Shown in pieces: positions 1,516 to 14,133 of a DNA stretch of 24,050 nucleotides. The notes under the pieces are model-generated. The model ran no database searches. It had not been told where the DNA came from and worked only from the letters and a program-made list of their open reading frames with translations. The DNA comes from Helicobacteraceae bacterium (GTDB taxonomy: Bacteria > Campylobacterota > Campylobacteria > Campylobacterales > SZUA-545), in contig JAABTA010000001.1 in the NCBI GenBank assembly GCA_011390075.1, forward strand, positions 1 through 24,050, read 5' to 3'. The first letter of the stretch is position 1. Each line of letters opens with the position of its first letter. Both the position numbers and the translations under genes were made by a program.

Positions 1516-3015
1516 ATGGGTTTTTTAAAGATAAACAGCAATATTGCTTCTATGAACTCACTGACAAACTCTAAGGTTACTAATAGAAATTTAGATAGCT
1601 CTTTAGAGAAACTGTCATCAGGTCTTAGAATCAACAGAGCAGCAGATGACTCTTCTGGTATGGCAATTGCCGATAGCTTAAGAGCGCAGGCTAGCGGACT
1701 AGGTCAAGCATCTAGAAATGCCAATGACGCCATTGGTATTATTCAGATTGCTGATAAAGCGATGGATGAGCAGATTAAGATCACAGAGATGATTAAAACC
1801 AAAGCGATTCAAGCTGCTCAAGATGGTCAGAATACAAAATCAAGAACTGCAATTCAAAGAGATATTGAGAGGCTTATAGGGCAACTCGATAATATTGCTG
1901 TCCAGACATCCTATAATGGAATGAAACTTCTTGCAGGAAGTTTTACAAACAAAGAGTTCCAAGTGGGCGCCTACTCTAATGAGACTATAAATGCGACAAT
2001 TGGAGCCACCCAGTCTACAAAAATTGGTGGTATTAGATTTGAAACATCAGCCACTCTGACAGCCTCAGGCGAAACCACACTTACTTTTAAAAACCCAACC
2101 GGTGGAGCTGATATTGAGCTAGAGAGTGTCGTTATCTCCACGAGTCCAAATTCTGGCATGGGAGCCTTAGCAGCAGCAATCAACAAAGTGTCTGATAAAA
2201 TTGGTGCAAGAGCGACGGCCGTTGTCCAATCAACAGGTGTTGACTCTGTTGGATCGGGAACTGTGAGATCCCTTAATATTAATGGTGTGCTTATTGGGGA
2301 TATTGATAATATTCAAGAGAATGATAAAAACGGTAACTTAGTCAATGCTATTAACTCCCAAAGTCTTGTAACAGGTGTGCGCGCCAGTGTAGATGAGATG
2401 GGAAGACTCAACTTAAACTCCGATGGTCGTGGTATTGAGATTACAACCTCAAGCGGCGGAGAGGCTGTGTTTGGTCTTGCAAATCTCTCTACTTCTGGTC
2501 ATGAAAACTATGGAAGACTCTCTTTGGTTAACTCCAATGCAAGAGATATCAACTACAGCGCAACAGGACCAATGGCCAATATTATTAACTCCGCTGGAGC
2601 CCAATCATTTGGTAACTTAGCTACGGTTAATGGAAACTTTACCTCTGAACAAGGGCTCGCAGGGGGCGCTTATGCTAATGAAGTCCTTTCAGGGGACGCC
2701 GGTCCAAATCTTGGTGTTGGTGTGACAACACGAACTGGGGCGATGATGACAATGGACATTGCCGAATCTGCTATGACAGCCCTTGATGAGATTCGATCAG
2801 ACCTAGGTGCCGTGCAACAACAGCTAGAAGTTACTATTAGAAATATCCAAAATGCAGAGGTGAATGTTAAAGCTTCGGAATCGGGAATTAGAGATCTAGA
2901 CTTTGCAGAAGAGTCGGCTAACTTTTCTAAACAAAATATCTTAGCCCAATCTGGTAGCTTTGCAATGGCACAGGCAAATGCTGTGCAACAAAATGTATTA
3001 AAGCTTCTCCAGTAG
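1516..3015 (+). CDS. flaB: Flagellin (epsilonproteobacterial type; FlaB-like by its sigma54 promoter)
   Basis: N-terminal SLEKLSSGLRINRAADDSSGMAIADSLRAQ, C-terminal IRDLDFAEESANFSKQNILAQSGSFAMAQAN and a Ser/Thr/Gly-rich central region. AAGGAG SD. The A/B designation is inferred only from promoter type. Confidence 0.95.
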   Translation: MGFLKINSNIASMNSLTNSKVTNRNLDSSLEKLSSGLRINRAADDSSGMAIADSLRAQASGLGQASRNANDAIGIIQIADKAMDEQIKITEMIKTKAIQAAQDGQNTKSRTAIQRDIERLIGQLDNIAVQTSYNGMKLLAGSFTNKEFQVGAYSNETINATIGATQSTKIGGIRFETSATLTASGETTLTFKNPTGGADIELESVVISTSPNSGMGALAAAINKVSDKIGARATAVVQSTGVDSVGSGTVRSLNINGVLIGDIDNIQENDKNGNLVNAINSQSLVTGVRASVDEMGRLNLNSDGRGIEITTSSGGEAVFGLANLSTSGHENYGRLSLVNSNARDINYSATGPMANIINSAGAQSFGNLATVNGNFTSEQGLAGGAYANEVLSGDAGPNLGVGVTTRTGAMMTMDIAESAMTALDEIRSDLGAVQQQLEVTIRNIQNAEVNVKASESGIRDLDFAEESANFSKQNILAQSGSFAMAQANAVQQNVLKLLQ

Positions 3016-3018
3016 ACA

Positions 3019-4911
3019 GTGGACTTTTACCAAAAAAACCTAAAAGCCCTCAAAAAGGTTAATGGGGATCTCTACAAAAGATTAGAGGAGGTTGCAACCA
3101 ATCAAAGATACGAAGTCTTTACAGGAAAAGATCCTGTTGATATTAATATCTTAGATACTAAAGCGCAAATACCTCTCTATGATAATCCTGTTGCAGATAC
3201 TCAGCAAAGATTAGAGGAGTTTAATGAGTATAGCCGATATCCATTTCTCTTTTTCTATGGAATAGGCAATGGGATCTTTTTTAAAGCCTTGCTAAACCAC
3301 CCCTCATTCAACCATATTATTGTGACCGAGCCAGAGATAGAACTCATCTACATAGCTCTTAATTTTGCCGATTTTTCCAAAGATATTGAGAGTTTACGAC
3401 TTATGATTATTCACTCAAAAGATCTTAATAACTCTTTGGCACTTAAACTAGCCACCCTTCCTGAGATTGGAGTGTATGTGAAGCTCTACAACCTTCATAT
3501 TACCACCCCCTATTATGGATCGTACGAAGAGGATATTAAGCGGGTGAATGGGCTCTATATTAATGGGGTATTGCAAAGTGTTAAAAATCATGGAAATGAT
3601 GCAATAGATGCTTTGATTGGTATTGAACACTTTATTCAAAATATTCCAGATATGCTGAGTAACCCCTCTTTTAGAAAGTTATGCCAAAGCAAAAATAGCT
3701 CTTTGTGTGTCTGTGTGGCTACAGGGCCAAGCCTTACAAAACAGCTACCACTCCTTAAAGAGATGCAAGAGTATGTGACAATTATTAGTGTAGATGCTAG
3801 CTTGCCTGTGCTCTATAAATGGGGCATACGACCTGATATTGTTACTTCATTAGAGAGAATAGAGCTTACGAAAACTTTTTTTGAGAGAACTCCTAAAGCG
3901 TTTCATGATGGCATTGTCTTTGCCCACTCTGCTTTGCAGCACAGAGCTGTCATGGAGTCGAGCTTTGGGCAAAAGGTTGTGATTATGCGACCCTTTGGCT
4001 ATATGCAGGGTTTTTCTCTTGATGAATTTGGCTACGCTGGCATTGGAATGAGTGCAGCCAATCTCTCTTTGGAGCTTGCCTTCTATATGGGTTTTAAGAA
4101 AATGTGCTTTATAGGACAAGATCTCGCCTATGGTGAGGATGGCAATACCCACGCCAGTGATCACACCTTTGGAGCTAGAGATAGTAAATTTGAAGAGAAT
4201 ATAAAAAATGAAGAGCGACTTATTATTGAGGGCTATGGTGGAGAAAAAAAGGTAGAGACCAATGCTATATGGCTGATGTTTCTCAACTATTTTGTGCAAA
4301 ATGTCTATGAAGCAAGAGGGATATTAGAGTGCATTAACGCAACAGAAGGTGGAGCAAGAATAGAGGGCACTACCGAGATGGCGTTTGCTGATGTGATAAA
4401 AAATTATGTTGATACAACAGTGAAGAAAAAAGAGATTGTCTTAGAGAAAGACTCTCCATCAAAAATGCAGAGAAATATAGAAAAGGCAGTTGATAGAATT
4501 ACTGACATTTTAGAGTACGGCAAAAGCTTAAAAGATGAGGTCGAAACACTTTTTATTGATGTGGCAAGTGCTTGTGAAAAACTAGTGGAGCTTAACCAAG
4601 AGAATCAATTAGAGAGACTCGATTTTAAAAAGCTAAAAAAACTTCTGCAAAGAATAGACACAATCAAAGAGATCTTTAATGAGAAAAAATTTCGCCAATA
4701 CTTCTGGGAGGGACTTAGAGCCACAATTATCAACCAAGAGTTAGAGATAGCTAAAATTGTTGTCAAAAAGGCTGACAGCGAAGAGGAAGAAAAAGCGAGA
4801 GATGTGGAGTTTATTTTTGCCCATAAAGCGTGGCTCTACACGCTAGCTGGTGGAATAGACGCACAAGTGACAGTTATTGGAAGAGCTTACGAAAATACTT
4901 TTTTAAAATAA
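3019..4911 (+). CDS. maf: Motility accessory factor (Maf, DUF115/MAF_flag10; flagellin nonulosonic-acid glycosyltransferase family)
   Basis: F.KNL.AL N-terminus, VATGPSLTKQLPLLKE, PDIVTSLER, FIGQDLAY and INATEGGARIEG motifs. Directly downstream of flagellin. Confidence 0.9.
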   Translation: MDFYQKNLKALKKVNGDLYKRLEEVATNQRYEVFTGKDPVDINILDTKAQIPLYDNPVADTQQRLEEFNEYSRYPFLFFYGIGNGIFFKALLNHPSFNHIIVTEPEIELIYIALNFADFSKDIESLRLMIIHSKDLNNSLALKLATLPEIGVYVKLYNLHITTPYYGSYEEDIKRVNGLYINGVLQSVKNHGNDAIDALIGIEHFIQNIPDMLSNPSFRKLCQSKNSSLCVCVATGPSLTKQLPLLKEMQEYVTIISVDASLPVLYKWGIRPDIVTSLERIELTKTFFERTPKAFHDGIVFAHSALQHRAVMESSFGQKVVIMRPFGYMQGFSLDEFGYAGIGMSAANLSLELAFYMGFKKMCFIGQDLAYGEDGNTHASDHTFGARDSKFEENIKNEERLIIEGYGGEKKVETNAIWLMFLNYFVQNVYEARGILECINATEGGARIEGTTEMAFADVIKNYVDTTVKKKEIVLEKDSPSKMQRNIEKAVDRITDILEYGKSLKDEVETLFIDVASACEKLVELNQENQLERLDFKKLKKLLQRIDTIKEIFNEKKFRQYFWEGLRATIINQELEIAKIVVKKADSEEEEKARDVEFIFAHKAWLYTLAGGIDAQVTVIGRAYENTFLK

Positions 4912-4970
4912 GTAAAAATTAATCAAAAGACTATAGAATGTTCTCTAAATACTGATTTTAGGGGATGGTA

Positions 4971-6206
4971 GTGAAAAATTTTTTTGTAATGTTCTGTTTG
5001 GGGTGCTCGTTTGTATTGGCTAGTAGTGATATTGCTTTTAGTGCCCAAGGTAACGCTAAAGCCCATTTCCAGCAGGGAGACAGCGATCTCTTTGGCGTTG
5101 TGACAGGATTGCAAGCTGAAGGCAAAAAGAGTAGGCTCTTTAAGCAACCACTCTCGTTTGAGGCTGGAGTAACACTGTCTCAACCAATTGTAGAGGGTGA
5201 TGACGGAGATCTCTTTGCTTTGGGAGATGCTAGGCTTAATAACAACGGGGAGAGTATTGGAGGGTTTTATTTTCATAAACTCAATCTCTCTTATGAAGAC
5301 AAAAACTGGAGAGTCAAGTTTTTTAGGCAAACCATAAAAGCCAATCCTTTAGTAGGAGTTGGATCTTCTGAGTTTATGCCTAATGCGTATGAGGGGCTCA
5401 CTTATAAAAATAGAATGCAAAAGGGGTATGTTTTAGATTTTGCCTACTTAACCGCCATGGTGGGCAAAGACTCGCATCTTGCTCTAAGAGATAATTTTAA
5501 CTCCATTACCTCTGCTATCATAGGATCTAGTGTAGAGAGTTCGCCTCTTATCTATCTTGGAACAAAAAAAAGTTATGATGAGGGCTACGCAAGGGCTTAT
5601 GCCTACTATATACCAGAGTTTGATTCTAGTGCTAATAAAGAGTCCTTAACCTCCTTGTATATTGACTATAGAGGCAATAAACTCAAAATTCCTCAAATAG
5701 CAGAGGCTGTTGAGTTACAACTTCTCAGTAGTAGCTATACAAGCAAAAGTAGCTTTACTCTTTTAGGTGGAAAGTTAGACCTCGGACTTGAAACAAGCAC
5801 TTTTACAAATAACTCCTTAGCTTTGAGTGTTGTAGCTGGAGATGAGCAAGGAGTCGCGTACCATTTTGGCGCTAATCCTGAGTTTACAAAAACCAATGAG
5901 TTTAGCCTAGAAGATATTGGCGTAGCGCAGATGGGTTTAAAGTTAAGCTCGGATGTTATTGTTCCCAATCCCCATGGAATACTCCTAGATCTGGCTCTAG
6001 CTTTGTATATGGGCAAAGATAAAGCAGGAACCTATTCTAGTACAACTGTAAAAAATGCCAATGTTGTGGAGCTAAACGCTCGAGGGGTGCTCAGCGAAAA
6101 AACAGGGATTGGGGCAACACTTGCGTATCAAGATCTTGAGGCAATAAGCGGTCAGAGTGTTGATGATAGGGCGCTATTTACTCTGAGTGCTAGCTATAAA
6201 TTTTAG
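4971..6206 (+). CDS. Outer-membrane beta-barrel porin (OprD/Campylobacter porin-like)
   Basis: Signal peptide, alternating amphipathic strands, FMPNAYEG segment and terminal beta-signal TLSASYKF. GTG 4971 fits the AGGGGA SD spacing better than ATG 4965. Confidence 0.7.
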   Translation: MKNFFVMFCLGCSFVLASSDIAFSAQGNAKAHFQQGDSDLFGVVTGLQAEGKKSRLFKQPLSFEAGVTLSQPIVEGDDGDLFALGDARLNNNGESIGGFYFHKLNLSYEDKNWRVKFFRQTIKANPLVGVGSSEFMPNAYEGLTYKNRMQKGYVLDFAYLTAMVGKDSHLALRDNFNSITSAIIGSSVESSPLIYLGTKKSYDEGYARAYAYYIPEFDSSANKESLTSLYIDYRGNKLKIPQIAEAVELQLLSSSYTSKSSFTLLGGKLDLGLETSTFTNNSLALSVVAGDEQGVAYHFGANPEFTKTNEFSLEDIGVAQMGLKLSSDVIVPNPHGILLDLALALYMGKDKAGTYSSTTVKNANVVELNARGVLSEKTGIGATLAYQDLEAISGQSVDDRALFTLSASYKF

Positions 6207-6218
6207 GAGAGTGATAGT

Positions 6219-7523
6219 ATGAAAAAAATTGTTGTTGTGCTCTTTATTGCTACATTTTTATTTTCTGATAGTTATAAAGAGGGGTTGGGGTATTTTAAGG
6301 TCAATAACTTTGAAAAGGCTTATGAAAGCTTGGATGAGGTGCTTTTTGAGTATATTGCAGAAAATGAGTTTAACTTCTTTTATGGACGAAGCGCTTTAGA
6401 GATTGGAAAATACAATGATGCTATTGCTGCCTTTGAGAGAATGCTTACCCAAGATCCAAACCATGATAGAGCAAGGCTAGAGCTAGCTAGAGCCTACTAT
6501 GAGCTTGGGCTCTACAAACAATCACAAATAGAGTTTGAGAGAGTCAAAGCAAAACCTTCTACTCCACAAGAGGTCAGAGAGATTATTGATGAGTATCTAG
6601 TGAAGATGGAAGAGGAGCAAGAAAAGCACACTCTTAGCGCTATTGCTTCTGCTGGTTTAGAGCATGATTCAAATATTAATAATGGAAATGATAACTGGTT
6701 AGGAGGAAGTGCCAATCCTGAAGTAAGCTCCTCAGCTATTGCGCTTAGTGGTGTAGTCAGTAGCGATTATAGGGTCAGTGATGAAAAGTCAATCAAAACT
6801 GTTGGGGGAGTTTTTCTCAAAGAATACACTCAAAAAGAGGGGAAAGACTATATCTATCCATTTATTAGTAGTGGTCTAGAGTTTGAAACGAAAGAGTACG
6901 AAATTGCCACACCAATAAGTTTTTCCACTCTCTATTATGACTCAGAGCTGCTTTTATATCAACTCTCATTAAGGGGTGAGGCAAAGTTTAAGCAGACTCC
7001 TGAGTTTTTAAAGAGTAGATCCCTCAAAGCGTTTACAGTCTCTGGGGAGATAACGCAAAAGATGTTTAATAGTGACAACTCTAATAGTAACTCAAGAGTT
7101 CTAAGTTTGGCAACAAGTGCTAAAACAGATATAAAGAGTGGGTTTATACAATACTCTTTAGGTTATGAGTTCGAGCGAAAAGAGGGTGGTCATAGCACTG
7201 ATATAGACAAAGATACTCTCAAATTAGGGGCTAGCGCTCTATTAAGTAATCTAGAGCCTATTATTATCACTCCAACGGCCAATATAGATTTTGCCCGCTA
7301 TAAAGATAGCGATGTGAGCGAAAATAAAAAGAGAGAAGATTTGAAAATTGCTTTAGGTGTAAGTGGCATCTATTCACTGGATAAAAAGTCTGCTCTTGTG
7401 GGGAGTGTGAGCTACAAAGATAGCAACTCTAATTTGGAAAGAGCCAGTTACAACAAGCTAACTGTAGGAGTGTTTTATAAATACTTCTTTTCCAATGCTC
7501 AGATAAAAAACTGGTTGAAATAG
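6219..7523 (+). CDS. TPR plus C-terminal beta-barrel outer-membrane protein, Slam/DUF560-like
   Basis: Signal peptide, TPRs (YGRSALEIGKYNDAIAAFERML, RARLELARAYYELG), P..V...I..YL linker, HDSNIN at the barrel start and amphipathic strands to VGVFYKYF. Confidence 0.7.
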   Translation: MKKIVVVLFIATFLFSDSYKEGLGYFKVNNFEKAYESLDEVLFEYIAENEFNFFYGRSALEIGKYNDAIAAFERMLTQDPNHDRARLELARAYYELGLYKQSQIEFERVKAKPSTPQEVREIIDEYLVKMEEEQEKHTLSAIASAGLEHDSNINNGNDNWLGGSANPEVSSSAIALSGVVSSDYRVSDEKSIKTVGGVFLKEYTQKEGKDYIYPFISSGLEFETKEYEIATPISFSTLYYDSELLLYQLSLRGEAKFKQTPEFLKSRSLKAFTVSGEITQKMFNSDNSNSNSRVLSLATSAKTDIKSGFIQYSLGYEFERKEGGHSTDIDKDTLKLGASALLSNLEPIIITPTANIDFARYKDSDVSENKKREDLKIALGVSGIYSLDKKSALVGSVSYKDSNSNLERASYNKLTVGVFYKYFFSNAQIKNWLK

Positions 7524-7530
7524 GAGAGAG

Positions 7531-8280
7531 ATGATGAAAAAATTGATTCTATTGATTGTATTGGTAACTGGGATCTATGCAAAAATGGTAGGGGTTGTTT
7601 CTGCGGCCAAAGGAGATGTTGAGGTGCTTCGTGAAGGCGATACTATGGAAGTTCAAGTTGGATTTGAGGTCAATGAGAAAGATACGATCACAACCCATAG
7701 TAATGCTAAAGCACAGATCTTTTTCAAAGATAAAACAGTCATTACAATTGGAAAAGACTCAGAGTTTACAATTAGTGAGTTTATTCTCAAAAAAGGGGAA
7801 GAAAAAGCTAGCTTTAGTGTCTCTAAAGGGCTTTTTAAAGCCATGACGGGAGCAGTTGGGCAAAAATATCCTGAAAAATTTTCTATCAAAACAAGAACAA
7901 CATCCATTGGTATTAGAGGAACACACTTTTTTGGAAAGATTAGTAGCGAGCAAGACTCTATCGCCTGTACGCAAGGAGCAATCACTGTTCAATCGGATGC
8001 TGGCGGACTTCCTGTGGAGGTCAATGCCGGAGAGATAACCTTTGTTGCCCTAGGAGATCTCCCAACTCCTCCAAGAGCATTTAGCGCGCAAGAGATACAG
8101 CAGATCTCGAGTTCGTTGGATGAGAGTTCGGAAGAAATGACCACAGAGACGACCACAGAAAATGAAAAGATGCAAGAGACACAAAAGAGTTTTATATTCG
8201 AAAAATTTGCAGTATATGAAAGTTTTATTGATAAAATTATTACTGATGTAAAAGATAAGGTGACGAAGCCTAATCCGTAA
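7531..8280 (+). CDS. Exported FecR-domain protein with an acidic Thr/Glu-rich tail
   Basis: Signal peptide, then KGDVEVLR, DTITT..NAKAQIFFKDKTVITIGKDSEF, KGLFKAMTG and IKTRTTSIGIRGTHF (FecR TxTAxIGIRGT motif). The start may be ATG 7534. Confidence 0.8.
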   Translation: MMKKLILLIVLVTGIYAKMVGVVSAAKGDVEVLREGDTMEVQVGFEVNEKDTITTHSNAKAQIFFKDKTVITIGKDSEFTISEFILKKGEEKASFSVSKGLFKAMTGAVGQKYPEKFSIKTRTTSIGIRGTHFFGKISSEQDSIACTQGAITVQSDAGGLPVEVNAGEITFVALGDLPTPPRAFSAQEIQQISSSLDESSEEMTTETTTENEKMQETQKSFIFEKFAVYESFIDKIITDVKDKVTKPNP

Positions 8281-8310: not shown

Positions 8311-8964
8311 CTAAATAATCCTATACCCAGAGCCCTTGACATTCTCAATAAGGGGTTCTGGGAGTTTTTTTCTGAGTTTATAGACCAAAACCCGCAGACT
8401 GTTCATATCCACAAACCCGTCCCAAACATAATCGGCTATCTCTTCTGTAGGAAGAATTCTATTTCTGTTTTTGACCAAAAACTCAATAAAAAGCCTCTCT
8501 TTTGGGATGAGGTTGATAGGTCTTTCATCAAAGCAGAGGGTGTTGCTAAGGGTGTTGTAGGAGTAGTTGTTGCCTAGGTCTAAAATAGTTTTATCTGTTT
8601 GTATCACTTTTGTTTTGAGCTGTTCTTTGACTCTTAGGATGAGTTCTTGAAGGCTAAAAGGTTTTCTTAGGTAGTCATTGCAACCATACTCATAGCCTTT
8701 GCTTAAGTGGTCAATATCACTATAGGAGCTAATAAAAATAGCAGGGGAGTTGTTGCTGCATTCGCGGATCTCTTTGAGAAACTGATACCCATCCACCCCT
8801 GGGACATTAATATCTAAAAGAAAAAGATCGTAAGTGATTGTGAGTAAAGAGTCAAAAGCCTCCTCTCCGTTATTAAAGGCATACACCAAAAATCCAGTTG
8901 CTTCTAGCTCGTCTTTAATCACCTCTCTTAAGGAGAAGTCATCTTCTAATAGGAGTATTTTCAT
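8311..8964 (-). CDS. OmpR-family DNA-binding response regulator
   Basis: KILLLEDD, LLDINVP phospho-Asp, YLRKPF and winged-helix LRVLVYKLRKKL...IENVKGSGY. ATGA overlap with the kinase stop. Confidence 0.92.
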   Translation of the reverse strand: MKILLLEDDFSLREVIKDELEATGFLVYAFNNGEEAFDSLLTITYDLFLLDINVPGVDGYQFLKEIRECSNNSPAIFISSYSDIDHLSKGYEYGCNDYLRKPFSLQELILRVKEQLKTKVIQTDKTILDLGNNYSYNTLSNTLCFDERPINLIPKERLFIEFLVKNRNRILPTEEIADYVWDGFVDMNSLRVLVYKLRKKLPEPLIENVKGSGYRII

Positions 8965-10550
8965 CTGCTAATCTCTTTAAAATAGTATCTAAAAAGGCTT
9001 CCTTTGTTAGGCTCTGAGAGTACCTCTATGGCGATAGAGTTTCTATCACAGATCTCTTTAACAACTGTAAGCCCTATGCCAAAACCACCTTTGTAGGTAT
9101 TCTCTCTATAGTACCTCTCAAACACTTTTTCAGGGCTTTTAACCCCTTTTCCCTCATCTTGAAACTCTAAAATGACATAAGCATCTTGTTTATAAAGCGT
9201 TACAGAGACAGACTTTTTTTCTAAGTTGTATTTTATACTATTTGAGAGAGTATTATCAATGATTCTTGAGAGCTCTATGGTATTTATATTGACAAAAAGA
9301 TCTTGTTTGGCAGAAAAAGTGATGGTTTGGTTGTTGCCTTTGGCAATGTCATCAAAATAGTCGCATCTGCTTTTTGTAAACTCTGAGAGATTAACAGTCT
9401 CTTTTATATAGACTCCCTTGTCTTTATTGAGAAAAAAGTTAAAATCATCATAGATTGAGGAGAGAGTTTTTGTTGCAGAGATAATTCTTTGAAGATATTT
9501 TGGGTTTTGAATATCTCTTGAGAGCACCTCTAAATAGGTGTTAATCACTGCTATTGGAGTATTGATCTCATGGATAGAATTTTTAATAAAGATATCTTGG
9601 GTCTCTAAAAGTTTCTCTATTTTACTATAGGCAATTTCTAGTTTCTCCTCTTTGTCTTTAATATCGGTTATATCTGTATTGGATCCAAGCATACGAATAT
9701 GCTTATGCTTTTTTGACCAGATGGAGTGAGCTTTACAAAGCACCCACTTAAAACCACTGGAAGTTTTGATTCTAAATTCGCACTGAAAGGTGTCTTTGTG
9801 GTGCTTGTGTTTTTTTAGAGCGTGTAAAAGTTTGCTTCTATCTTTTTTTTCAATGAGATCTAAAAACTCTTTTTCGCTAAAGGGTTTGTGTCTGTTTGGA
9901 AGCCCTAGCATCTCATAAAACCGAGAGGAGCAAGAGACTTCGCTTTCTTGAATATCCCAATCCCAAACACCATCATTGGTTGTAAGGGCAATGACTTTGA
10001 GTCTCTCTTCGCTCATCTCTAGTTCTTGACTTTTTTTTCTATAATTCTCCTCTAGCTCTTTGTATAAAATAGCATTTTCTAAAATAGAGGAAGCGTAATC
10101 GGCCAAGAGTACGAGCATTTTTTCATCGTCCTTTTCAAAATTGCTCTGCTTTTTATTGAGCACTTGAAAAACGCCAATGGTCTCTTTATGGAGATTGATA
10201 AGGGGTACGGTGAGTATGTTGTGGGTAGTGTATCCTGTGTGCTCATCAATCTCTTTAAAAAAACGAGGATCACTATACGCGTCTTGCACTATTATAGGTT
10301 TCTTTTGCAAAATCGTATGGCCCGCAATTCCATTTTTTGCACAAATGGTAATGGTCTCTTTGACTCCTAAAGCCACCCGTGTCCAAAGCTCATCTTTTTC
10401 TTTATCAAGGATAAAAATAGAGGCCCTGTCTGCATCTACAATATCTTTTGCGATATTGCTCAGTGTCTCTAAAAGTGAATCGAGATCTTTTTCATCACCA
10501 ATAGCTTTACCAAGTTTAAGAAGAATTTGTAACTTTTTTTCGCAATCCAT
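8961..10550 (-). CDS. Soluble GAF-PAS sensor histidine kinase
   Basis: True start is ATG 10550 (MDCEKK, GGGAG SD), not 10721. GAF (ADRASIF...GIAG...VQDAYSDPRF...ILTVPL...VLNK), PAS (DGVWDWD...EFRI...KW...GSNTDIT), H-box SIHEINTP, N-box DNTLSNSIKY, G-boxes DEGKG and GFGIGL. No transmembrane helix. Confidence 0.9.
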   Translation of the reverse strand: MDCEKKLQILLKLGKAIGDEKDLDSLLETLSNIAKDIVDADRASIFILDKEKDELWTRVALGVKETITICAKNGIAGHTILQKKPIIVQDAYSDPRFFKEIDEHTGYTTHNILTVPLINLHKETIGVFQVLNKKQSNFEKDDEKMLVLLADYASSILENAILYKELEENYRKKSQELEMSEERLKVIALTTNDGVWDWDIQESEVSCSSRFYEMLGLPNRHKPFSEKEFLDLIEKKDRSKLLHALKKHKHHKDTFQCEFRIKTSSGFKWVLCKAHSIWSKKHKHIRMLGSNTDITDIKDKEEKLEIAYSKIEKLLETQDIFIKNSIHEINTPIAVINTYLEVLSRDIQNPKYLQRIISATKTLSSIYDDFNFFLNKDKGVYIKETVNLSEFTKSRCDYFDDIAKGNNQTITFSAKQDLFVNINTIELSRIIDNTLSNSIKYNLEKKSVSVTLYKQDAYVILEFQDEGKGVKSPEKVFERYYRENTYKGGFGIGLTVVKEICDRNSIAIEVLSEPNKGSLFRYYFKEISR

Positions 10551-10578
10551 AAAGGCTCCCCGCTTTTTGTCGATAGTG

Positions 10579-10585
10579 TATTGTA
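10579..10585. promoter_or_regulatory. Overlapping divergent -10 hexamers (TATTGT on +, TACAAT on -) between the kinase and the protease
   Basis: The 56-bp divergent gap contains + TATTGT at 10579-84 and - TACAAT at 10585-80. Confidence 0.45.
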
Positions 10586-10606
10586 ACCAAACAAAGTGAT
10601 GTTTCA

Positions 10607-12211
10607 GTGAAGCCAAAAATAAAAAAGCCAAAAATATCCATTGCTCTTTGTGGGATTTTACTGGCTGGATGCGCCAGCGAAAAAGAGAGTAGATATAGCA
10701 CACCTCAAACAAAAGAGCCAACGGCTAATACTCAAAACTCTAGCTATTTTCCTCCTCATCTTGCAGTTCCTTCACTGCAAGAAGACCCACTTGCAAAATA
10801 TCAGTGGCACTTAGTCAATATTGGGCAAAATTCTGGAGCCAAGCTCTCCTCTTCTGAGGGAGAAGATCTTAGACTAGAAGAGATCTGGAGCAGTTTTAGG
10901 GGCAGAGGGGTCAAAATTGCCATAGTGGATACAGGTGTGGAGCTTAACCATCCTGATTTGAATGAAAATATTGACTTAAGCCTTAGCTACAACTATAAAA
11001 CAAAACAAAGAGATCCTACCCCAACAGGAGCAGAAAAAGAGATAGCCCACGGCACTGCTTGTGCGGGGATCTCTGCAGGGGTTGGGTTTAATCAGGTTGG
11101 AGTCCGAGGGGTAGCCCCTGCTGCAAAAATAGTGGGGCTCAATGTTTTTTCCAATCCGACAACTGCAAGTTTTGCCCAAGCCCTTTTTAGATCTAGCGAA
11201 ATAGATATCTACTCAAACTCTTGGGGAGAAGCAGATATTTTGTCACAGGGTATATCTCAAATGGAATTAGATGCCATTGAAGATGGCATTACATACGGCA
11301 GAGGTGGATTGGGCTCTATCTATATATTTTCTTCAGGAAACAATAGAAAAAAGAGGCATAACGGAAACTACTTTCAAGAGCAAAATAACAGATTTGTTCT
11401 TTCTGTGGGAGCCCTTTCGGCAAGAGGAGAGGTTGCTAGCTACTCCAATCCAGGAGCCAATATTTTAGTGAGCGGATATGGTGGCGAAGATGGCTATAAT
11501 AGACCGGCTATTGTCACAACAGACACCACAGGATTAGAGCGCGGTTTTGATAAAGAGTATAGAGAACTAGGGGTGATGGATGTTGCAGGCAACGAAAATG
11601 GAGCGTATACCCATCTTATGAATGGTACAAGTGCTGCTGTTCCTATGGTTGCAGGTGTTGTGGCTTTAATGCTCGAAGCAGCGAGGAGTAATAATAACTT
11701 TTTAACCTATAGAGATGTTAAGTATATCCTAGCAACTACGGCAAGAAAAAATAGTCCAGGCAGTCCTTCGTGGTTTCGTAATGGAGCAGGGCATTTAGTG
11801 AGCCATAACTTTGGTTTTGGCGTGGTCAATGCCAAAGAGGCTGTCTTGGTAGCCCAGAATTTTCCATCCCTCAAAAAAGAGAAGATTTCAAAACTTTTTA
11901 TGGCAAAAAACTCTCAAATGATCACTATCGAAAACACCAATGTTGATCATATAGAGTTTGTAGATATTTGGGTGGATATAGGGGGACAAGACCCTAAAGA
12001 TCTTGAGATTTCTCTTATTTCACCACTTGGTACCCGCTCCGTTTTACAGACACAAGAGGCTCCCTTGCCACACAACTTCCTAAGAAAATGGCGTTTTGGC
12101 AGTGTGCAGTTTTTGGATGAGTCAAGCACGGGAGCGTGGCGTTTAGAAGTTGTAAGCAGACAGAACGAAGCAGAGATATATTCATGGGGAGTACAATTTT
12201 ATGGACATTAA
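10607..12211 (+). CDS. Kexin/furin-like S8 serine protease with P-domain; predicted lipoprotein lacking a propeptide
   Basis: Lipobox LAGC (Cys22). Mature-type start DPLAKYQWHL at residue 60. Catalytic VDTG, HGTACAG, oxyanion SSGN and NGTSAAVP. Furin-like DIYSNSWG, GRGGLGSIYIF and SHNFGFG. P-domain DLEISLISPLGT...GAWRLEV. Confidence 0.92.
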   Translation: MKPKIKKPKISIALCGILLAGCASEKESRYSTPQTKEPTANTQNSSYFPPHLAVPSLQEDPLAKYQWHLVNIGQNSGAKLSSSEGEDLRLEEIWSSFRGRGVKIAIVDTGVELNHPDLNENIDLSLSYNYKTKQRDPTPTGAEKEIAHGTACAGISAGVGFNQVGVRGVAPAAKIVGLNVFSNPTTASFAQALFRSSEIDIYSNSWGEADILSQGISQMELDAIEDGITYGRGGLGSIYIFSSGNNRKKRHNGNYFQEQNNRFVLSVGALSARGEVASYSNPGANILVSGYGGEDGYNRPAIVTTDTTGLERGFDKEYRELGVMDVAGNENGAYTHLMNGTSAAVPMVAGVVALMLEAARSNNNFLTYRDVKYILATTARKNSPGSPSWFRNGAGHLVSHNFGFGVVNAKEAVLVAQNFPSLKKEKISKLFMAKNSQMITIENTNVDHIEFVDIWVDIGGQDPKDLEISLISPLGTRSVLQTQEAPLPHNFLRKWRFGSVQFLDESSTGAWRLEVVSRQNEAEIYSWGVQFYGH

Positions 12212-12575
12212 AAAGCTACTTTTTTTTCTACCGGCACTCCTTTTTGCGGAGTACTCTTTTAAGGTAAGCCAAGAGAAATTTGCGACCTATAAAGAGCAAA
12301 GAACAAGCAGATCGCAAAATGCACACACTTTTCTGCGAGAGGGTGTGCAGATGAAAACGGATGGCAAAATGATTGTCTCTTTTAAACAACCTATGGCTAT
12401 TAAACAGTTTGAAACGAGCTATGGCGTCAAAATGGTGGCAAAGATCTCCCAAACAAGAGAGAGTTATATTTTTACAACCTCAAACTCTTTGGGAGCAACT
12501 TGCGAAAAAATTGGTAAAGACGACAGAGTGAGATTTGCATTTCCAAATTGGAAAGATAGAAAAGAGCTGTATTGA
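12201..12575 (+). CDS. Small secreted protein with subtilase-propeptide (I9-like) features; candidate external chaperone/inhibitor
   Basis: Signal peptide, DGKMIVSFK and DRVRFAFPNW resembling the propeptide 'IVkF' and 'V.YAEPN' motifs. 11-nt overlap with the protease, GGGGAG SD. Confidence 0.65.
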   Translation: MDIKKLLFFLPALLFAEYSFKVSQEKFATYKEQRTSRSQNAHTFLREGVQMKTDGKMIVSFKQPMAIKQFETSYGVKMVAKISQTRESYIFTTSNSLGATCEKIGKDDRVRFAFPNWKDRKELY

Positions 12576-12586
12576 TGAAGGACTAA

Positions 12587-12648
12587 GACACCCCTAGAGG
12601 TTCTAGAGGCGTCCGCAACCGACTTCGTGGTAGTATCGGTAGCACGCC
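12587..12648. other. GC-rich (37/62 nt) intergenic structured element with two overlapping stems; REP-like repeat, ncRNA or 3' UTR structure
   Basis: Stem A: GACACCCCTAGA/TCTAGAGGCGTC. Stem B: GGCGT...ACCGA...TCGGT...ACGCC. The two share GGCGT at 12608-12612. Confidence 0.5.
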
Positions 12649-12670
12649 AATTTTCTAAACCCTTTTTTAA

Positions 12671-12676
12671 TATAAT
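12671..12676 (+). promoter_or_regulatory. Putative sigma70 -10 box of der
   Basis: TATAAT preceded by a T-rich tract, 47 nt before GTG 12724. Confidence 0.5.
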
Positions 12677-12723
12677 TTATTCTGATCTAAAAGGTCAATA
12701 CTTTAATAACCAAAAGGTAGCAA

Positions 12724-14133
12724 GTGGTAAAAGTAGCATTAGTTGGTAGGCCAAATGCAGGAAAAAGTTCTCTGTTTAATCGTTTTGTAAAGTTTAGAGA
12801 TGCAATCACAAGCGATGTGGCAGGAACAACAAGAGATATCAAAAAAAGAGTGGCCACATTTAATGGATACGAAGCAGAGCTTTTTGATACAGGGGGACTA
12901 GAGGATAGGGATGAGATGTTTTTGCATGTAAAAAGAAAAGCATTAGAGTCTGCAAAAGAGGCAGACATTGTGCTTTTTATTGTGGATGCAAAAATTATCC
13001 CTGATGACGAAGATAAAAAACTTTTTTACTCCATCCAAGAAGCGTGTGGAAAAATTGCTCTTGTGCTTAACAAAGTGGATAACGAAAAGCAGGATGATAG
13101 GCTTTTTGAGTTCTACTCTTTTGGTGCGGAGAATGTGTTTTTAATCTCTTGTGCCCACAATAGGGGTGTGGCTACTTTAGAAAATTGGGTGGGTCACTCT
13201 ATTAAAGAGATTGGTGGATATATAGATGCAGCACATGTGGAAAAATTTGATGAGTTTGATGGTTTGTTGGATAATTTTGATGAAGAGGGAGAGCTATTAG
13301 AAACAGCGCAAGAGGAGGACTCTAATGAGATTAGAGTTGCGATTATTGGTCGCCCTAATGTTGGAAAAAGCTCTTTGCTCAACGCGCTTATTCAAGAGGA
13401 GCGATCGGTTGTGAGCTCTATTGCTGGAACAACTATCGATCCTGTAGATGAGACGATTACTGTAGGAGATAAAGCGATCACTTTTGTGGATACAGCAGGG
13501 GTTAGGAAGCGATCAAAGATACTCGGGATAGAGAAGCTAGGACTCAATAGAACCCAAAAGATGTTAGAAAAGGCCGATATTGCCCTTTTGACCCTTGATG
13601 CCTCAGAGGAGTTTACAGAACAAGATGAGAAGGTGGCAGGGCTTATTGACAGGTATAACCTTGCTACGATTATTGTGATTAACAAATATGACATAGCTGA
13701 GCACTCCTATGAGGAGTTGGCTAAAAGTTTAAGACAAAAGTTTAGATTTTTAGAGTACGCCCCCTCCATTACCCTCAGCGCAAAAACCCTCAAACGCACC
13801 CATAAACTCACAGATCTTATTTTGCAAGTGTATGACAACTACTCCCAAAGAATTCCCACATCGAAGCTCAATGAGCTTTTAAGAGTGGCAATGATCAAAC
13901 ACCACGCCCCTACATACAAAACAAAACCACTTAAAATATATTTTGCAACACAGTTTGAGACAAAACCTCCAAAGATAGCTTTGGTCTGCAACTATCCGAG
14001 TGGATTTCATTTTAGCTTTCTTAGATTTTTAAAAAACCAAATTCGAGAGGCATTTGATTTTACAGGAAGCCCTTTGGTGTTACTGACAAGAAAAAAAGGG
14101 GAACACTCAGACGAACAGGACCACTCAAGCTAG
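12724..14133 (+). CDS. der: Ribosome biogenesis GTPase Der (EngA)
   Basis: Tandem G domains GRPNAGKS/DTGG/NKVD and GRPNVGKS/DTAG/NKYD, an acidic linker and a C-terminal KH-like domain. Confidence 0.97.
   Translation: MVKVALVGRPNAGKSSLFNRFVKFRDAITSDVAGTTRDIKKRVATFNGYEAELFDTGGLEDRDEMFLHVKRKALESAKEADIVLFIVDAKIIPDDEDKKLFYSIQEACGKIALVLNKVDNEKQDDRLFEFYSFGAENVFLISCAHNRGVATLENWVGHSIKEIGGYIDAAHVEKFDEFDGLLDNFDEEGELLETAQEEDSNEIRVAIIGRPNVGKSSLLNALIQEERSVVSSIAGTTIDPVDETITVGDKAITFVDTAGVRKRSKILGIEKLGLNRTQKMLEKADIALLTLDASEEFTEQDEKVAGLIDRYNLATIIVINKYDIAEHSYEELAKSLRQKFRFLEYAPSITLSAKTLKRTHKLTDLILQVYDNYSQRIPTSKLNELLRVAMIKHHAPTYKTKPLKIYFATQFETKPPKIALVCNYPSGFHFSFLRFLKNQIREAFDFTGSPLVLLTRKKGEHSDEQDHSS

Follow-up and report, generated by a model that had tools for sequence, protein, structure and literature searches.

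Introduction

The closest described system to the one reported here is that of the Aeromonas protease ASP, which requires the protein ORF2, encoded just downstream of it, and whose catalytic site takes up the last residues of ORF2, Gln-Pro-Lys, with the Lys at C1 (PMC5638518). ORF2 inhibits ASP with a half-maximal inhibitory concentration (IC50) of ~84 nM, free ORF2 is degraded by ASP (PMC5638518), and homologous operons have been described in Vibrio, Shewanella, Chromobacterium and Pseudoalteromonas (PMC5638518; see also PMC13492141). The external-chaperone mechanism is not new, having been studied in one Aeromonas enzyme; our literature search turned up no report of such pairs in Campylobacterota, nor of lipoprotein subtilases that receive their propeptide in trans. 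Here we describe two overlapping genes in a 24,050-nucleotide stretch of a Helicobacteraceae bacterium genome (contig JAABTA010000001.1, positions 1 to 24,050, hereafter the window), of which one encodes a predicted lipoprotein protease (10607-12211) and the other a small secreted protein (12201-12575). In our view the two genes probably constitute a split pro-protease, in which the small open reading frame (ORF) is the missing propeptide, encoded separately, and the assignment of the pair as an unannotated member of the ASP/ORF2 external-chaperone kind is well supported.

Results

A kexin-like protease without room for a propeptide

The protease ORF (10607-12211, forward strand) begins with a GTG and encodes 534 residues, comprising a peptidase S8 domain and a P-domain, with the following features:

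10607-10672, forward strand: lipoprotein signal peptide by pattern, with the lipobox L-A-G-C (Cys22 at 10670-10672)
10673-10783, forward strand: low-complexity linker, residues 23-59 (37 residues), too short for a folded propeptide, from the sequence
10784-11821, forward strand: mature-type start (D60, DPLAKYQWHL) and S8 catalytic domain, from Pfam and PDB alignments
10928-10930, forward strand: catalytic Asp108
11048-11050, forward strand: catalytic His148
11339-11341, forward strand: oxyanion Asn245
11630-11632, forward strand: catalytic Ser342
11957-12199, forward strand: proprotein-convertase P-domain, residues 451-531 (Pfam P_proprotein, E 1.7e-13, 50.9 bits against a cut-off of 21)

The N-terminus shows a K-rich n-region and a hydrophobic core, followed by L-A-G-C with Cys22, which is the pattern of a signal peptide with the invariant lipobox Cys of bacterial lipoproteins, so that lipidation is predicted; relatives likewise start with a K-rich n-region and an xxGC lipobox. 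The linker that follows is rich in S, T, P, Q, N, E and K, and the mature forms of kexin, ASP and furin in the PDB align from residues 45-83 of the protease onward. Because an in-frame stop leaves the frame open for just 10 codons 5' of the GTG, and because a histidine kinase gene lies there on the opposite strand, the gene has no room for an N-terminal propeptide.

The catalytic region matches Pfam Peptidase_S8 over residues 99-405 (E 8.5e-45), and the best solved relatives are furin (1p8j, E 1.2e-52), ASP (3hjr, E 3.4e-43) and kexin, with ASP aligning as one stretch over residues 60-520. The Asp, His and Asn of the catalytic set are invariant among 31 aligned relatives, and the order of Asp-His-Ser with the oxyanion Asn, followed by a P-domain, is that of the kexin/furin (S8B) enzymes.

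An overlapping gene for a small secreted protein

The second gene (12201-12575, forward strand) encodes 124 residues and, judged by its signal-peptide pattern, a secreted protein. Its features are as follows:

12186-12191, forward strand: putative Shine-Dalgarno-like motif GGGGAG, 9 nt 5' of the ATG of the small ORF and within the protease gene, from the sequence
12201-12211, forward strand: 11-nt overlap of the start of the small ORF with the stop of the protease gene (ATGGACATTAA; ATG at 12201-12203, TAA at 12209-12211), from the sequence
12201-12248, forward strand: Sec signal peptide by pattern, residues 1-16, predicted cleavage after L-F-A
12249-12350, forward strand: N-terminal extension, residues 17-50, three beta strands and predicted protease contact, from the AlphaFold2 (AF2) and complex models
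12351-12545, forward strand: propeptide-like body, residues 51-115, beta-alpha-beta-beta-alpha-beta, holding IVSFK and VRFAFP, from AF2, fold searches and Pfam
12546-12575, forward strand: C-terminal tail N-W-K-D-R-K-E-L-Y (residues 116-124) and stop, a predicted product-like active-site plug with Tyr124 at P1

The overlap (ATGGNCATTAA) has the same 11-nt form in the window and in its two closest relatives (L002 and L003), and points to translational coupling of the protease and the small ORF. An N-terminal hydrophobic segment is present in all 27 aligned members of the small-ORF family. A sequence-only reading of this stretch had described a propeptide-less lipoprotein protease next to an overlapping, secreted small ORF with propeptide-like motifs, and its particulars are all borne out, namely Cys22, the 37-residue linker and the DPLAKYQWHL start in the protease, and the 11-nt overlap, IVSFK (residues 58-62) and VRFAFPNW (residues 110-117) in the small ORF.

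In sequence searches, the small ORF matched PF22148 (Fervidolysin_NPro-like) over residues 54-116 below threshold (E 0.0031, 18.3 bits against a cut-off of 21); the same model matched four of seven family members, and one relative (P0131, 21.9 bits) passed the cut-off. A word-index protein search with the small ORF gave no match beyond itself, and an exhaustive phmmer search gave 6 short relatives, along with 4 long repeat proteins that were judged not comparable and set aside.

The small protein has a subtilase-prodomain fold and resembles ORF2 over its length

The AF2 model of the small protein, built from a 7-sequence alignment, has a predicted local distance difference test (pLDDT) score of 87, with the residues of the body above 90. 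It comprises three N-terminal strands (residues 16-23, 26-33 and 42-46), a beta-alpha-beta-beta-alpha-beta body and a C-terminal strand or tail. The body of this predicted structure has the order of elements of the prodomain fold, and the whole has the three-part architecture of extension, body and tail that the 3wqb_B alignment and the published description (PMC5638518) give for ORF2.

A Foldseek search against the PDB returned subtilase prodomains as the top 11 matches, including PC1/3 both free and on furin, PAM protease, pro-subtilisin E, fervidolysin, the subtilisin BPN' prosegment and Aspergillus alkaline protease. In a VIA search of 48,161 chains, which is independent of Foldseek, prodomains took ranks 1-5, with the furin-bound PC1/3 prodomain at rank 1 (Z 7.5). 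When the Foldseek candidates were realigned with VIA, the ORF2 chain 3wqb_B (Z 7.3) gave the longest alignment, covering 90 of 99 residues and positions 15-124 of the model; ORF2 alone aligned the N-terminal extension, and ordinary prodomains covered only 50-124. Matches among AlphaFold Database (AFDB) clusters include an 'ASP external chaperone domain-containing protein' and a 'Fervidolysin-like N-terminal prodomain', and a language-model atlas points to the ASP external chaperone and Fervidolysin-like prodomain Pfam families as well. At the level of sequence, the ORF_2_N family PF18492 (cut-off 29.2 bits) is reached by one relative, P0145 (29.7 bits), and gives 24.6-27.6 bits on five others (P0146, P0137, P0144, P0132 and P0133), while the subfamily of the window and that containing P0145 are linked by hhalign with a probability of 98% (E 1.4e-13).

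Homology to fused propeptides and a fixed end point

Used as a profile, a 27-member alignment (A2) gathered 26 further proteins from Sulfurimonas, Thiomicrolovo, Sulfurovum and metagenome-assembled genomes of Campylobacterales, every named one of which is annotated as 'hypothetical protein'. The family profile also matches the N-terminal regions of full-length S8 proteases, both in the genome sample (L008, E 3e-12; L017, E 6e-6) and among the homologues of the window's own protease (P0117, P0115, P0107 and P0106, about 1e-9 to 1e-14; P0112, 1.5e-5).

In five fused proteins (L008, L017, L045, P0106 and P0117) the propeptide ends 9 residues past a conserved Pro, with junctions such as PNWLRTRSKR, PDWLKQRAKR and PDFAIQKRRR, and in P0107, P0112 and P0115 the register is one or two residues shorter; the motif with which the window's protease starts (DPLxxxQWHL) lies within a few residues after the fused propeptide. 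The stand-alone ORFs end exactly 9 residues past the same Pro in 26 of 27 cases, and after 6 residues in the other. The small gene therefore has its stop codon where the fused form has its processing junction. The small ORF of the window is itself a separate downstream gene, and not covalently N-terminal to the catalytic domain and autoprocessed.

The predicted complex places the tail in the active site

For the complex, the protease from residue 58 onward was folded together with the small protein from residue 17 onward, which gave an ipSAE of 0.91 in three runs, whereas the highest of 3 controls reached 0.17; in calibration, the ipSAE mark was attained by 51 of 78 solved complexes and by 2 of 108 mismatched pairs. 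Within the predicted interface, the protease contributes residues 108-109, 145, 148, 244-245 and 340-342 as well as the helices around 184-230, and the partner the entire tail (116-124), the sheet and residues 22-24, 28, 46-47 and 49 of the extension. The modelled geometry is that of the canonical prodomain binding mode, and the C-terminal residue is predicted to lie at the catalytic centre, where that of ORF2 lies in ASP.

The gene pair recurs across Campylobacterota

Conservation was assessed in 401 Campylobacterota genomes, with a threshold of E <1e-4 for the chaperone profile. Of the 20 matches, 14 directly follow an S8 gene, 3 directly precede one as separate ORFs and 2 are fused, the remaining one being on a 1.7-kb contig that is too short to tell. 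Matches with E >1e-4 and no S8 gene nearby (L021, L023-L027 and L031) were taken as chance. A search seeded with the protease found 25 loci in 15 genomes, at 18 of which a small ORF is adjacent (14 downstream, 4 upstream) and at 2 of which a fused propeptide matches weakly. A search for related loci with alignment A3 yielded a single locus, which was among those already known. In the two largest families of the sample the protease was not matched (0/118 and 0/158), and the only two chaperone-profile hits in these families were dismissed as chance, both having an E near 0.01 and no S8 gene nearby. Both genes are present in all three genomes of the window's own family, and three close homologues of the protease have the small ORF directly downstream. 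Beyond the two largest families, the two genes occur together repeatedly in Campylobacterota, and the small ORF, like ORF2, adjoins a propeptide-deficient kexin-like S8 protease with a P-domain in a pairing that is conserved in relatives. Together, the sub-threshold Pfam match, the fold searches, the profile matches to fused propeptides and the conserved neighbourhood agree, and confirm that the resemblance of the small protein to propeptides is beyond chance.

Two variations on the arrangement were observed. On contig 61 of genome G153 (L006, L028, L037 and L049) two pairs stand in tandem, protease-partner-protease-partner, the partners ending in IEMK and VAIQ and their proteases differing at the S1 position. 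Propeptide-like ORFs upstream of the protease were seen in L009, L012 and L013 (one genus), in L038/L050 and in L054/L055, and these end just before, or overlap, the protease's own lipoprotein signal peptide. In the split form, the partner gene can therefore come before or after that of the protease.

Association of the split with a lipid anchor

Where the partner is separate and the N-terminus of the protease can be read, the signal sequence is followed by a lipobox-like xx[GAS]C in 21 of 21 proteases, whereas fused proteases carry ordinary signal peptides and a lipobox in 0 of 8 (Fisher p = 2e-7, a value that is overstated, the sequences being mutually related). Under a looser rule of our own (a hydrophobic run followed by [GAS]C), 91 of 120 protease homologues have a lipobox, and 0 of these 91 have a fused propeptide-like region before the catalytic domain. 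On the reading that we favour, cleavage of an N-terminal propeptide would remove the lipidated Cys, so that a subtilase anchored by lipid would need a propeptide supplied in trans; the association with lipoboxes suggests that the propeptide moved in trans to keep the lipid anchor. ASP of Aeromonas has a split propeptide without a lipid anchor, so the split is possible without one.

Substrate specificity and the C-terminal residue of the partner

Six specificity residues of furin were mapped onto the protease by hand, using the furin alignment and a MAFFT table. Four of them, D154, E236, D264 and D306, correspond to T109, F189, Q214 and F256, none of which is acidic, and acidic residues are kept solely at the positions of D191 (E145) and D258 (D210). 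The protease thus lacks the acidic S1, S2 and S4 pockets of the S8B enzymes, and it is kexin-like in fold, with dibasic specificity not expected from its sequence. Of the label 'furin/kexin-like' given in the sequence-only reading, the part concerning fold and P-domain stands, and the implied dibasic specificity, given T109, F189, Q214 and F256, does not.

The tail of the small protein ends in K-E-L-Y, and Phe256 of the protease takes the position of the S1 Asp306 of furin. In the pair L051, the protease retains the four furin acidic residues examined and the partner ends in R-V-K-R, the furin consensus. More broadly, all eight proteases with an acidic residue at 256/257 are paired with a partner ending in Lys or Arg, with the limits that six of the eight are of S8A type, in which the loop alignment is uncertain, and that the sequences are interrelated. 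These data are suggestive, and no more than that, of a tail that mimics the cognate product, with covariation between the tail end and the S1 pocket. If this is true, the last residue of the chaperone reports the specificity of its protease, and the enzyme of the window would be a Tyr/Leu-directed, and not a dibasic, enzyme of kexin fold.

Surrounding genes and regulation

Genes for a response regulator of OmpR type and for a histidine kinase with GAF and PAS domains (8311-10550, reverse strand) are transcribed away from the protease. The same pair occupies the same place in L003, and L002 has a different regulator. The regulator-kinase pair may control the protease operon. As listed, the kinase ORF has a TTG at 10721 and 586 residues and would overlap the start of the protease, whereas its homologue in L003 has 526 residues; an ATG near 10550 (MDCEKK...) appears to be the more likely start. 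This leaves one further feature:

10551-10606, no strand assigned: divergent intergenic region of 56 nt, presumed promoter region, inferred from the kinase ATG

A scan for promoters and terminators did no better than on shuffled sequences. None of the sigma-70 matches directed towards the protease was convincing, and Rfam gave nothing in 10300-12900 (E up to 1). A GC-rich stretch (12587-12648) lies between the small ORF and der, with no Rfam match (E up to 1) and no terminator-like site called.

Further upstream are three genes for exported proteins (4965-8280), the first (413 residues) without a Pfam family and the third with a FecR domain. The second (6219-7523) encodes a TPR protein that was considered as a possible Slam translocon, with a TPR_Slam match below threshold (22.6 against 35.2 bits), no DUF560 barrel and a weak beta-barrel hint; were it a Slam-like translocon, the lipoprotein protease could be its surface cargo. 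A flagellin gene and then a Maf/MptE-like flagellin glycosylation gene (1516-4911) have no evident link to the protease.

Discussion

The split-propeptide system proposed in the sequence-only reading, with the ASP/ORF2 precedent as it was stated there (PMC5638518), is supported by the fold of the small protein, by a predicted complex with the tail in the active-site cleft well above controls, and by a pair that is conserved beside S8 genes in Campylobacterota. Its further suggestion that the small protein could double as a reusable periplasmic inhibitor found no support, and in the ASP system the protease degrades free ORF2 (PMC5638518).

Starting from the fold, from the homology that links the small protein with fused propeptides and with ORF2 and its family, from the conserved pairing and from the predicted complex, we infer the following with regard to folding, inhibition, site of action and fate of the chaperone. 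The protease would be exported through Sec and lipidated on Cys22, from which a short flexible linker would lead to a start where mature kexins, furin and ASP begin. The coupled second gene would yield a secreted protein of 108 residues, with an N-terminal extension, a body of prodomain fold and a 9-residue tail. In the periplasm, its sheet might dock on two surface helices of the catalytic domain, with the tail laid through the substrate cleft and the free C-terminal Tyr124 in S1. The small protein could thereby serve both to template folding and, for a time, to inhibit the protease in the manner of a product, the roles that ORF2 has for ASP, and would later be released or degraded to give an active protease that is still lipid-anchored.

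Several points weigh against a split pro-protease of this kind. No Pfam cut-off is reached by the small ORF of the window itself, and PF18492 ORF_2_N gave no match on it (E up to 1) or anywhere in the genome of the window; because PF18492 misses this ORF, its membership in ORF_2_N rests on the indirect subfamily link and on structure. Hidden Markov model (HMM) searches of PDB sequences, with the small ORF and with alignments A1, A2 and A4, never reached ORF2 or a prodomain, the matches to noelin, choline kinase and FtsH being taken as chance. Z scores of about 7 in the fold searches are within the range given by common ferredoxin-like folds, the high score of the complex may stem in part from solved prodomain complexes that the model has learned, a likeness that is no proof of binding, and 5 of the 25 protease loci have no clear partner or fused propeptide. 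Finally, some subtilases fold without a propeptide, so that the requirement for the chaperone is presumed here.

This last point also favours the view that the small protein is a stand-alone I9-type inhibitor, comparable to POIA1 and PBI2, that guards the periplasm against a protease which folds without it. Fold and binding mode are the same in such inhibitors, and POIA1 (1itp) is among the Foldseek matches. ORF2 itself inhibits ASP at the IC50 given above (PMC5638518). We nevertheless consider this explanation unlikely, as the protease has no other propeptide, the small ORF is by its overlap translationally coupled to the protease and ends at the processing junction of its fused relatives, and the nearest characterised full-length structural match, ORF2, is a proven chaperone. 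It is far less probable still that the small ORF encodes an unrelated periplasmic protein of a common ferredoxin-like fold whose adjacency is meaningless. The RRM and other ferredoxin-like folds do score little below the prodomains (Z 5-6) and the single Pfam matches have weak E-values, but the family profile matches fused propeptides (E 1e-12 to 1e-14), 19 of the 20 profile matches are adjacent to S8 genes (including the 2 fused), the complex score far exceeds the controls and the C-terminus is in fixed register with the junction. As the assembly is 60% complete and in 280 contigs, the split could in principle be an assembly or frameshift artefact, or a once-fused pro-protease in decay. To this we attach a negligible probability, since the propeptide-like gene follows the catalytic domain instead of preceding it and brings a start codon and a signal peptide of its own, and since the arrangement and the 11-nt overlap recur in independent assemblies and complete genomes. 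A split pro-protease is thus the reading that we retain.

Beyond the pair itself, the separate propeptide might be an adaptation that permits an N-terminal lipid anchor, with the last residue of the chaperone co-evolving with the S1 pocket. We advance this joint reading tentatively, at somewhat below even chances. The proposed reason for the split, compatibility with an N-terminal lipid anchor, is testable, and if the reading is true split propeptides should track lipoboxes across bacteria. The present data would extend the trans-propeptide route to environmental Campylobacterota (Sulfurimonas, Thiomicrolovo, Sulfurovum and Campylobacterales), sulfur-oxidising relatives of Campylobacter in which the partner genes bear the label 'hypothetical protein' and escape Pfam in most cases. 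The fixed end point offers a rule for annotation, namely that an unfused prodomain ORF stops 9 residues past the conserved Pro, where its fused relatives have their junction, and in practice these proteases should be co-expressed with their partners.

Comparison with known systems

In comparison with ASP and ORF2 (PDB 3HJR and 3WQB), the locus shares a propeptide-less kexin-like S8 protease with a P-domain, a partner gene immediately downstream, and a partner made up of an extension, a prodomain-like body and a C-terminal tail, the last residue of which lies, here by prediction, at the catalytic centre. It differs in that the protease is a predicted lipoprotein, whereas ASP is freely secreted, in a tail that ends in Leu-Tyr and not in Gln-Pro-Lys, with Phe256 in place of the S1 Asp306 of furin, and in a partner ORF that falls below the PF18492 cut-off. 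In addition, the pair is found in Campylobacterota, and in its relatives the partner also occurs upstream.

With intramolecular propeptides (PF05922 I9, PF16470 S8_pro-domain and PF22148) the small protein shares the fold, the predicted docking surface and the tail-in-cleft geometry, and with those of related bacterial kexin-like proteases also sequence homology and the same end point. Unlike them, it bears an additional N-terminal extension, and because it is encoded separately and carries its own signal peptide, no autoprocessing step is needed. Pleurotus POIA1 and yeast PBI2 are likewise free proteins of propeptide fold that bind a subtilase, but the proteases that they inhibit own propeptides, and they share no operon with their targets. 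The association with the lipobox and the fixed end point are the useful additions of this locus to an external-chaperone mechanism known from ASP.

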